NCBI GenBank assembly: GCA_951406725.2 | Contig: OX597828.1 | Span: 41,726,001-41,790,000 of the forward strand | Source: Octopus vulgaris | Lineage: Eukaryota | Length of the DNA stretch: 64,000 nt | Direction of reading: 5' to 3' | Part shown: positions 12,569 to 23,464 of the stretch, in pieces | Layout: every line of letters begins with the position of its first letter | Numbering within the stretch: position 1 is the first letter of the stretch | The notes under the pieces: model-generated | The model's input: the letters and a program-made list of their open reading frames with translations, nothing else | Database searches by the model: none | What the model was told of the DNA's origin: nothing | Program-made: the position numbers and the translations under genes

Positions 12569-14112
12569 TCGTTCGACATAGGCCCACAGGTCGGAAATGG
12601 CTGGACACTGTACGAGTTCGTGCAGAACAGTTTCGTCGCTCTGACCGCATCTCGGGCAGGTCGGCCCCGTGTTTCTCGAGCCGTGTCTGTAGAGCTTATC
12701 CCGAACGGGTAACGCTTCTCCATAGCACTGCCAGGTCAGGGATCTCTGGAAGTTGTCCATAGGTCCCGGCCCGAAAGTCGTCTTGAACAGGCGGATCAGG
12801 TATTCTTCATCGACGCCCAGGTTTGCCCCGAGATCGTCGTTGTACCTTCCCTCCACTAATTTCTTAAAGAATGCTTGGGTTCAAGGTCAAGGTCGACCCG
12901 GGACGGCATAGTTGCTTGAGAGCAACGCGACACTCACGGTGCCATTCGCCCTTCCTCGGCCTCGTTTTGATCCTCGACTGTAGTTCGGTCATGGTGACGA
13001 GCTGCAGGAAAGCGCGCCTCACAAACGGCGATCACACCTGTTCACCGTCGTCTACGTAGAGCCGGAGATGTTGCAGTCTCAGCGCGTGTCTGCGCATCAT
13101 CAACCACGGCATGCCCTGCCCTCCTTTTAACGGTGTTTACAGCAAACGGATCACCTGACCATTGGAACTCATCCTTTCCACAAGAAGCGGAAGAGGATAC
13201 GTTCTAGTTTGGTGATGGTAGGGTCGGGACAAAACACGATGGTCAGGCGGTAGTTGATGACGGACGCGATGCACGTGTTCGCCACCAGCGCCCAACCTTT
13301 TAGGAACAGCTTCCTCTCGGCCCATTGCCGGGCGAGATTGACCACCCTACTCGTTATCTCGTTCCAGTTCTCCGTTTGGACATCCGGACCAAACCAGACC
13401 CCGAGCATCTCCACCGGATCGTCGGTCCAGCGTCCCACGACGTAGTCGCTGGTGGACGACATGGACTTGCCTCTCTAGGTGCCGAGCCATAAGCCCACTG
13501 ACTTTCCCCGGTTGATTTTCGCTCCTGTTACCTCTTCGTAGTCTTTCAGTGTCTCACCGACCAGCTCGATGTGTTTCTGGCTAGACATTATGACGGTGAC
13601 GTCGTCAGCGTATGCAGACATGCACGTCCCAATTCTCGCGGGATGCCCCTCAGCGTTGCTAGCTCCTGCAGTAGTGGCTCGAGAGTCAATACGTATAGAA
13701 GCGACGAGAGGAGGCATCCCTGATGGACCGAACGTGCAATATCGAAAGGTCTCGATAGATGTCAATTTACGCGAATCACCAAAACGGATGCCTCTGCACA
13801 AGGCAGCTATCCAGCCGCGGAAGACGGGACCGAAACCAGCCGCTATGAGGACAGCCTCCAAGTATCGATGGTCTACCCTATCGAAAGCATTGGATTTATC
13901 CAAGTTGATCAGGGCCCCACCCATGCCAGGTTTCTTAACTACTCTGTCTGTGATGCAGCGCATCAGATGGAGGTTGTCATGGGTGCTCCGGCCCGGCACG
14001 GCGCACGTTTGCGCCTTGTCGACCAGTTTCTCGATGACAAGCGCCAACCTCTTGGCTAACACCTTGGCCAAAATTTTCAAGTCTGCATTGAGCAGAGTGA
14101 TGGGCCTAAAGA
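12569..14112 (-). mobile_element. Tx1/L1-clade LINE ORF2 remnant (RT plus C-terminal Cys/His motif), frameshifted
   Basis: FRPITLLNADLKILAKVLAKRL, LINLDKSNAFDRVDH, SAYADDV, LGVWFG, ILFRFLWKG and CPRCGQSDETVLHELVQC spread over several frames. Confidence 0.9.
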
Positions 14113-14121
14113 TTACGTAAT

Positions 14122-14400
14122 TCAAAATATAAATAATAACAAGCCATAAAATAGATTTTTAGTTTTCAAAACGAAATATTTGAAAAGTTTCCTCCTACTT
14201 TTTGGAATGGCAAAGTCTTTGATCAGATCCTCAAAATTAATCTTAGGTAACACATCTGCCTCTATACTTAGTAGAGATAAAGGGACCCTGAATATTATTT
14301 TAGCAAATTTAATGTGATTTCTTTTGTGCCGTAAACCATTTACCATTTTTGTGATGCTCTAAGCACGTGCTTATTGTATTTAATGGTTAATCCAGCACTG
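14122..14400 (-). mobile_element. Internally deleted hAT DNA transposon derivative
   Basis: Terminus CAGTGCTGGATTAACCAT; encodes LSLLSIEADVLPKINFEDLIKDFAIPKSRRK, like the hAT C-terminal dimerisation region; second copy at 28953-29305. Confidence 0.7.
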
Positions 14401-22790: not shown

Positions 22791-23045
22791 GAGTCATTAT
22801 GCTAATATTATTAACCCACACACTGGTTCAAATCCATCCCTTTATTATTAGGCAATTGGTTATATACATTAAGAAATACACAAGAATGCACACACACAGA
22901 CACATATATATGCAGAAGAATACATACATACATACATACATACATACATACATACATACATACATACATACATACATCATCATCATCATCATCATCATCG
23001 TTTAACGTCCGTTTTCCGTGCTAGCATGGGTTGGACGGTTTGACT

Positions 23046-23392
23046 GTAAATGCGCCTGCGCGAGATATTTGAAAAATTATAGCATATAATGATGGGACAC
23101 GTCTTATCTTGTCTCTGAATTATAAGTTAGTTGTTTAGGCCGGTTACTGACGAGAATTCGCCTGGTAGATAAAGTGGTCTTGCTAAATTATCTATTAAAA
23201 GATGGCAAGCAATATTATTTGCTAAAGAAATTCGAAACCATGGTAGCACCGTTATATAACAAGGTAAAGGTTTTTATTTTTCATTGACTTCGAAATTTGC
23301 TATTAAATTGTGGTATTTGGCCGTGTTTGGCTGCTATTTCTAGCATGTAAAAATTACCTGTTAAAGGGTAATTTTCCATTTTGAAAAACGTA
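23046..23392 (+). mobile_element. Putative Penelope-like terminal repeat ending in (TA)n
   Basis: Contains a canonical hammerhead core and a terminal hairpin AAAATTACC/GGTAATTTT just before the (TA)n. Confidence 0.6.
23141..23251 (+). ncRNA. Hammerhead ribozyme motif, canonical core, ~70-nt branched stem II
   Basis: CUGACGA 23147-23153; stem II GAAUU 23154-23158 / AAUUC 23229-23233; GAAA 23234-23237; palindromic ACCAUGGU stem III; GUA triplet ending at 23245; stem I CGGU/ACCG with two junction mismatches. Confidence 0.7.
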
Positions 23393-23400
23393 TATATATA

Positions 23401-23464
23401 TAGGGAGAGTTTACGAAAAAAACAAAAGACGAAGACAGGTGGTGTACAAAACAAACAGATGTAT
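23401..23464 (-). mobile_element. Family E fragment in (TA)n
   Basis: caaaagacgaagacaggtggtgtacaaaacaaacagat matches about 11258-11290 and 43847-43885. Confidence 0.7.

Follow-up and report, generated by a model that had tools for sequence, protein, structure and literature searches.

A Damaged Copy of a Short, Noncoding Mobile Repeat with a Predicted Self-Cutting Hammerhead RNA in Octopus vulgaris

A 64,000-nucleotide stretch of the Octopus vulgaris genome (contig OX597828.1, positions 41,726,001 to 41,790,000; here called the window) holds a damaged copy of a small jumping repeat that encodes no protein and carries a predicted self-cutting hammerhead RNA. Quite probably, it belongs to a noncoding, Penelope-copied repeat of about 490 bases with a type I hammerhead, whose stem II was doubled by a template switch and is folded as a rod, and the hammerhead of the window copy is crippled. 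The repeat is of a known kind, either a nonautonomous Penelope element or a retrozyme; the new part is the traced duplication.

In the reading that we favor, a Penelope-like reverse transcriptase/endonuclease, probably of the Hydra or Neptune clade, would copy the repeat, whose hammerhead would cut after GUA chiefly in dimers formed through a palindromic stem III. Through a double template switch during reverse transcription, a 24-nt hairpin would have been copied a second time, and 15 nt taken from the 3' hairpin of the element itself would have been inserted. Both hairpin copies would zip into an unbranched rod without disturbing the core geometry, later master copies would have adjusted the rod through compensatory changes, and the window copy would then have been crippled by two private changes in stem I.

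Results

An earlier note on the window, made from its letters, had proposed a hammerhead, and all of the motifs that it listed were found in place. On the plus strand, the 5' strand of stem I (23141 to 23146) leads into the core CUGACGA (C3 to A9; 23147 to 23153) and the 5' strand of the stem II base, GAAUU (23154 to 23158), which pairs with the 3' strand, AAUUC (23229 to 23233); stem II is 80 nt long in total, with 70 nt enclosed. The core GAAA (G12 to A15.1; 23234 to 23237) follows, then the palindromic stem III, ACCAUGGU (23237 to 23244), which is predicted to pair between two molecules, the GUA triplet (23243 to 23245), the cut site after GUA predicted from the hammerhead consensus (23245 to 23246), and the 3' strand of stem I (23246 to 23251). 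Within stem II, UAGAUAA (23166 to 23172) and UUAUCUA (23188 to 23194), and AGCAA (23208 to 23212) and UUGCU (23219 to 23223), are present as complementary sequence. The motif has the core of a type I hammerhead (CUGANGA, GAAA, and NUH) and was the sole such site found in the window by a descriptor scan, which gave no hits in 40 order-2 Markov random windows at equal stringency. The folding z-score of the 141-nt region alone was unremarkable (−0.42). Rfam reported no hammerhead in the window at the gathering threshold and none over the motif in four family loci (L001, L006, L118, and L105) at an E value of ≤10; these misses are uninformative on stem II length, because a short-stem control (in L044) was missed too. 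As the note had anticipated, stem II exceeds the spacer (7 to 17 nt) allowed in the core-spacer search described in PMC8557442.

Stem I of the family majority is a perfect 6-bp helix. In the window, the first two bases of its 3' strand are GC for UA, and these changes break the two pairs adjoining the core. The mismatches noticed earlier were thereby confirmed; they are private to the window copy (1 of 29 copies), and, judged from its letters, this hammerhead is likely crippled and inactive, as had been suspected.

A BLAST search of the genome with 23046 to 23392 matched a dispersed family at 89 to 100% identity (1,113 candidates, 40 scored). The full unit of this noncoding repeat comprises 483 bases (L008:1436-1918), to which a short TA linker is added. 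The window copy (23041 to 23395, plus strand) is 5' truncated and tail-less and covers unit positions 61 to 415 of 483. Its 5' junction shows a 6-nt microhomology (23041 to 23046, plus strand) common to an upstream SINE-like repeat; near its 3' end stands the 9-bp 3' hairpin of the element (23350 to 23375, plus strand; arms 23350 to 23358 and 23367 to 23375), donor of the stem II spacer; and the end itself meets a (TA)n run (23391 to 23402, no strand assigned), the usual target of the family. Immediately downstream, positions 23403 to 23462 (minus strand) are the end of another repeat, relatives of which extend into a short hammerhead-like motif; the window copy stops short of that motif. Elsewhere in the window are broken non-LTR reverse transcriptase frames (12437 to 14158, minus strand), which we take to be L1/Tx1-like, as well as tandem SINE-like arrays (periods 190, 146, and 232) and a 78-bp satellite (2991 to 3463, 6185 to 6623, 31235 to 31671, and 37897 to 38555).

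Among 29 distinct loci, family copies end at unit positions 408 to 417 (18 loci), 481 to 483 (10 loci), or 424 (1 locus), which delimits an optional tail of about 70 nt, found at one end only, and the targets are TA. Upstream partial tandems occur in 10 of these loci and inverted arms, which are 5' truncated, in 9, with the tail on just one arm in all 9. PMC8557442 depicts such partial tandems and inverted arms, as well as the optional tail, for Penelope-like elements, the published tail length being 30 to 40 nt, and two reverse transcriptase start sites account for such tails in the in vitro work of PMC11167929. Full copies in all subfamilies are preceded by the unit's own tail; the unit is closed, because what lies 5' of its start is that tail. 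No reading frame was found in the repeat of about 490 bases. The note had proposed a search for copies joined to reverse transcriptase or GIY-YIG frames, which gave none in 120 family loci with 1- to 1.5-kb flanks, the exceptions near the unit being one neighboring fragment (L145) and one weak match (L125; E = 0.001); the unit is therefore nonautonomous rather than the end of a coding element. ARAGORN called no tRNA genes in 4 loci, a count that degenerate tRNA-like heads would escape.

The hammerhead has three stems, with stem I the open one, and both core and stems are conserved across subfamilies. In BLAST-picked copies, all 11 core bases are kept in 23 of 29, and core changes number 7 of 319, versus 353 of 8,352 elsewhere. 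Each of the 15 pairs in stems I to III is kept in all seven long-form subfamily consensuses, none of which breaks a pair, at a flank divergence of 13% between subfamilies. Compensatory changes are seen across subfamilies in stems II and III. In 14 of 65 rows, both bases of pair 2 of stem II (alignment positions 17 and 103; A-U/G-C) are changed, and this swap recurs in a separate short-form lineage, so that it occurs in two separate parts of the tree. The center of stem III, changed on both sides in 2 of the 65 long rows, reads CUAG in nearly all 40 short-form rows and in the first of the long forms, then CAUG in those that follow. Among the short-form copies, some carry GUC in place of GUA, or a stem I pair switched from U-A to C-G. 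Because the core is fixed in the pattern by which many rows were chosen, evidence is drawn here solely from double changes at the consensus level and from the BLAST-picked or downstream-anchored sets. RNAalifold on the 65 decayed copies recovered neither a stem II fold nor the hammerhead. The assignment to a type I hammerhead with a palindromic, dimer-type stem III in a Penelope-mobilized repeat is supported.

One strict pattern (control, 0 hits) retrieved 57 copies with a 38- to 42-nt arm (short form) and 51 copies mostly with a 77- to 83-nt arm (long form, including two deletion variants); both counts are lower bounds, the pattern being matched by about half of the BLAST-picked copies. In the window, stem II consists of a first hairpin copy (23163 to 23187), a 15-nt spacer from the element's own 3' hairpin (23188 to 23202; exact copy in L167), and a second hairpin copy (23203 to 23226), which would form the 5' side, apex, and 3' side of the predicted rod, respectively (all on the plus strand). 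The duplicate is near perfect in L167, where the arm is two 24-nt copies of the short-form hairpin (22 of 24 bases identical), the spacer is found again in the 3' hairpin of the element itself, 171 nt downstream, and both joints show 3-nt overlaps. By sequence comparison, then, the 80-nt stem II is derived from the 40-nt arm by duplication of a 24-nt hairpin around 15 nt of the 3' hairpin, and a double template switch during reverse transcription is the simplest and likely cause.

A flank-only tree (82 of 105 rows, with 23 dropped for short flanks and 3 odd rows excluded earlier; midpoint root; subfamilies assigned by hand) gave a ladder from the short form through the early long form to the window's subfamily. 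A clade of 56 rows (support, 99/92) includes one short revertant (L179:1060), a short-arm copy nested among long-arm copies that likely lost one duplicate, and the sole early long copy in the tree groups with a short copy. Divergence from the respective consensus is 7.3% in the short form, 6.1% in the early long form, and 2.7 to 4.8% in later forms. Because divergence falls along this series and the duplicate is most perfect at its base, the change probably ran from short to long.

With the hairpin duplicated, copy 1 can pair with copy 2, giving a rod. This unbranched rod is the predicted dominant fold in 57 of 65 copies and the lowest-energy fold of all seven long-form consensuses. Rod pairs 43-76 (U-A/C-G) and 55-66 (C-G/U-A) covary at subfamily level; 89.6% of cells pair in the rod model, and three rod pairs are broken in 21 to 34 of the 65 rows. 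Energy gave no significant sign of selection on the rod, with 27 to 108 of 500 random-mutation simulations equally good. The multibranched stem II proposed in the note did not hold up: it has no subfamily-level compensatory pairs, versus two for the rod, three of its 12 pairs are broken in 22 to 34 of the 65 rows, and it is fully pairable (12 of 12) only in the window's own subfamilies, at 3.8 and 6.7 kcal/mol above the rod. The long stem II is thus predicted to be one unbranched rod and not two branches.

Stem III has a predicted pairing probability of 0.01 in the monomer. When two molecules of an intact copy are cofolded, it pairs between them, 14 kcal/mol better than two monomers, with stem II in a shifted register; this predicted pairing matches the dimer model of PMC4209133, by which cleavage would occur in the dimer. 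If cut monomers served as templates, copies should start at the cut site, and only 2 of the first 100 of 200 listed downstream-anchored copies do so within 2 nt (by eye), which leaves no genomic trace of cut templates; the missing pileup neither proves nor excludes self-cleavage. A depth step just 3' of the cut site had been read as cut templates, a reading that the copy starts did not bear out. Contigs from two runs, taken for RNA by guess, span the motif with letters of the Y2 type and are given no weight as evidence. At most two hammerheads stand in a row, with consecutive units only in L006 and L012 of the 29 loci.

Two groups of Penelope-like elements in the same genome were compared with the unit as candidate mobilizers. 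In a Neptune-type family (L056 to L059), which looks recently active, intact 781-aa frames are numerous and nearly identical, a further frame of about 350 aa lies upstream, and the core is a U3-A8 variant; the hammerhead arms of this family are 20 nt long. Coding elements with RWK, DKT, CxCX5C, CxxC, and CxH, which are Hydra-clade marks according to PMC8557442, have as their 3' end an unrelated hammerhead family with a 59-nt arm. Its relatives (63 to 100% protein identity) keep 55- to 60-nt arms with covarying stems. This Hydra-clade family (L187 to L236; e.g., L217:2551-5391, minus strand) has 19,783 candidates, frames of up to 947 aa, and an Asn-rich insert, and its 55- to 60-nt arm II with covarying stems is unlike the Hydra motifs listed. 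The 57- to 60-nt stem II rods of Hydra-clade Penelope elements indicate that long arms are habitual in this genome. No sequence in common with the unit was found in 35 Neptune-type loci (a small part of 6,136 candidates) or in 51 Hydra-type loci (a small part of the 19,783), and a Hydra-type mobilizer would at most be plausible. A third, unrelated hammerhead (L071:6026, minus strand) has a 54-nt arm II, and a GIY-YIG exon in L048 presumably belongs to a host gene (SLX1-like) and not to a retroelement.

Discussion

The most serious alternative, to which we give somewhat less than even chances, is that the family is a circular-RNA retrozyme, in which tandem transcripts would be cut to monomers, ligated, and reverse transcribed around the ring. 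It is compatible with the favored reading and differs by making cleavage and circles essential. The closed unit with its own tail 5' of its start in all subfamilies, copies that run through the cut site and past one unit (L006), the core and stems kept across divergent subfamilies, and the retrozymes known from a mussel in PMC7229834 speak for it, but the 29 loci contain no long arrays, tandem transcripts would give identical copies without a circle, and the Penelope element tested in PMC11167929 did not need cleavage for insertion in vitro. If, instead, the hammerhead were a dead relic, carried passively without present selection, the lack of a pileup at the cut site would follow, and zero core changes in 11 to 13 positions are not significant alone at 13% flank divergence; we consider this improbable, however, given the pair 2 double changes in two separate parts of the tree, the replacement of one stem III palindrome by another, and consensuses that break none of the 15 pairs.

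That the unit is a clipped 3' end of an autonomous Penelope-like element yet to be found is the least probable reading, hardly to be expected; a similar-looking family with a 59-nt stem did turn out to form the 3' end of a coding element of the Hydra clade, but here 120 loci with their flanks show no attached frame, and full copies are preceded by their own tail. A stem II that is truly two-branched in the window's subfamily, or a rod/branch switch gating cleavage, is also unlikely. Along the ladder, the number of branched pairs that can form grows from 9 to all 12, the gap to the rod is only 3.8 kcal/mol in that subfamily, and the branched covariation score beats shuffles as well (2/500); against this, the gap is 15 to 24 kcal/mol in five other subfamilies, the branched fold disappears again in Y2, many rows break three of the 12 branched pairs, and the change by which the 5' hairpin of the branched fold becomes complete restores a rod pair as well. 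Equally little credence is due to a broader proposal, that a long rod stem II (40/80-nt, 57- to 60-nt, and 54-nt families) is a functional signature and docking arm for Penelope-assisted cleavage, here doubled via the captured 3' hairpin, refined by selection, and made into a rod/branch cleavage switch in the window's subfamily.

On the favored reading, a Penelope-copied repeat with a doubled, rod-shaped stem II, one genome offers a natural series of ribozyme arm growth, from the short form and the near-perfect duplicate to stepwise compensatory changes and a revertant, and six or seven natural RNAs would allow a direct test of what a long stem II costs or is good for. Hammerhead searches with a length limit miss part of the motifs in this genome, those of a large Hydra-clade family included. 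The link between ribozymes and Penelope elements is already known, so the surprise is modest. In the literature searched, which did not extend to Repbase, Dfam, or most supplements, neither this family nor a stem II of 80 nt in a hammerhead of an animal retroelement was described.

As described in Craig et al. 2021 (PMC8557442), the hammerheads of Hydra-clade Penelope elements are likewise type I with a 4-bp palindromic stem III (acca-a-tggt in Hydra-1_oBim), and the elements share (TA)n targets, a tail, and inverted truncated arms with the octopus repeat. They differ in that the octopus repeat has no reading frame, and the Hydra motifs listed there have arm II stems of 3 to 7 bp with loops of 3 to 10 nt, versus 40 or 80 nt here; two plant PLE-X motifs are flagged in that article as noncanonical with a long loop 2 (about 53 nt in PLE-X1_sMoe). 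The minimal Penelope hammerheads described by Cervera and de la Pena 2014 (PMC4209133) resemble the octopus motif in a weak palindromic helix III, presumed dimer activity, G10.1-C11.1, and many solo copies. Such hammerheads have an unpaired base between A9 and a helix II of 7 to 8 bp with a short loop; here, the weak stem III is palindromic and of the dimer type, whereas stem II, with no unpaired base before it, starts directly 3' of A9, the arm is far longer at 80 nt, and stem I has 6 bp. Metazoan non-LTR retrozymes, as presented in PMC7229834 and bioRxiv 10.64898/2026.07.22.740005, are also noncoding units with a type I hammerhead, tandem junctions, and proposed Penelope mobilization, and the unit length falls within their range of 51 to 972 bp; they form long arrays, whereas the octopus repeat is mostly dispersed as copies of 1 to 1.6 units with inverted arms. 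Poseidon of Anolis, in the experiments reported by Frangieh et al. 2024 (PMC11167929), encodes its own protein and has a shorter tail, and its hammerhead is without a long arm and needed protein to cut; with the octopus repeat it shares an optional tail delimited by two fixed 3' ends, AT-rich targets, and the lack of any trace of ends at the cut site.
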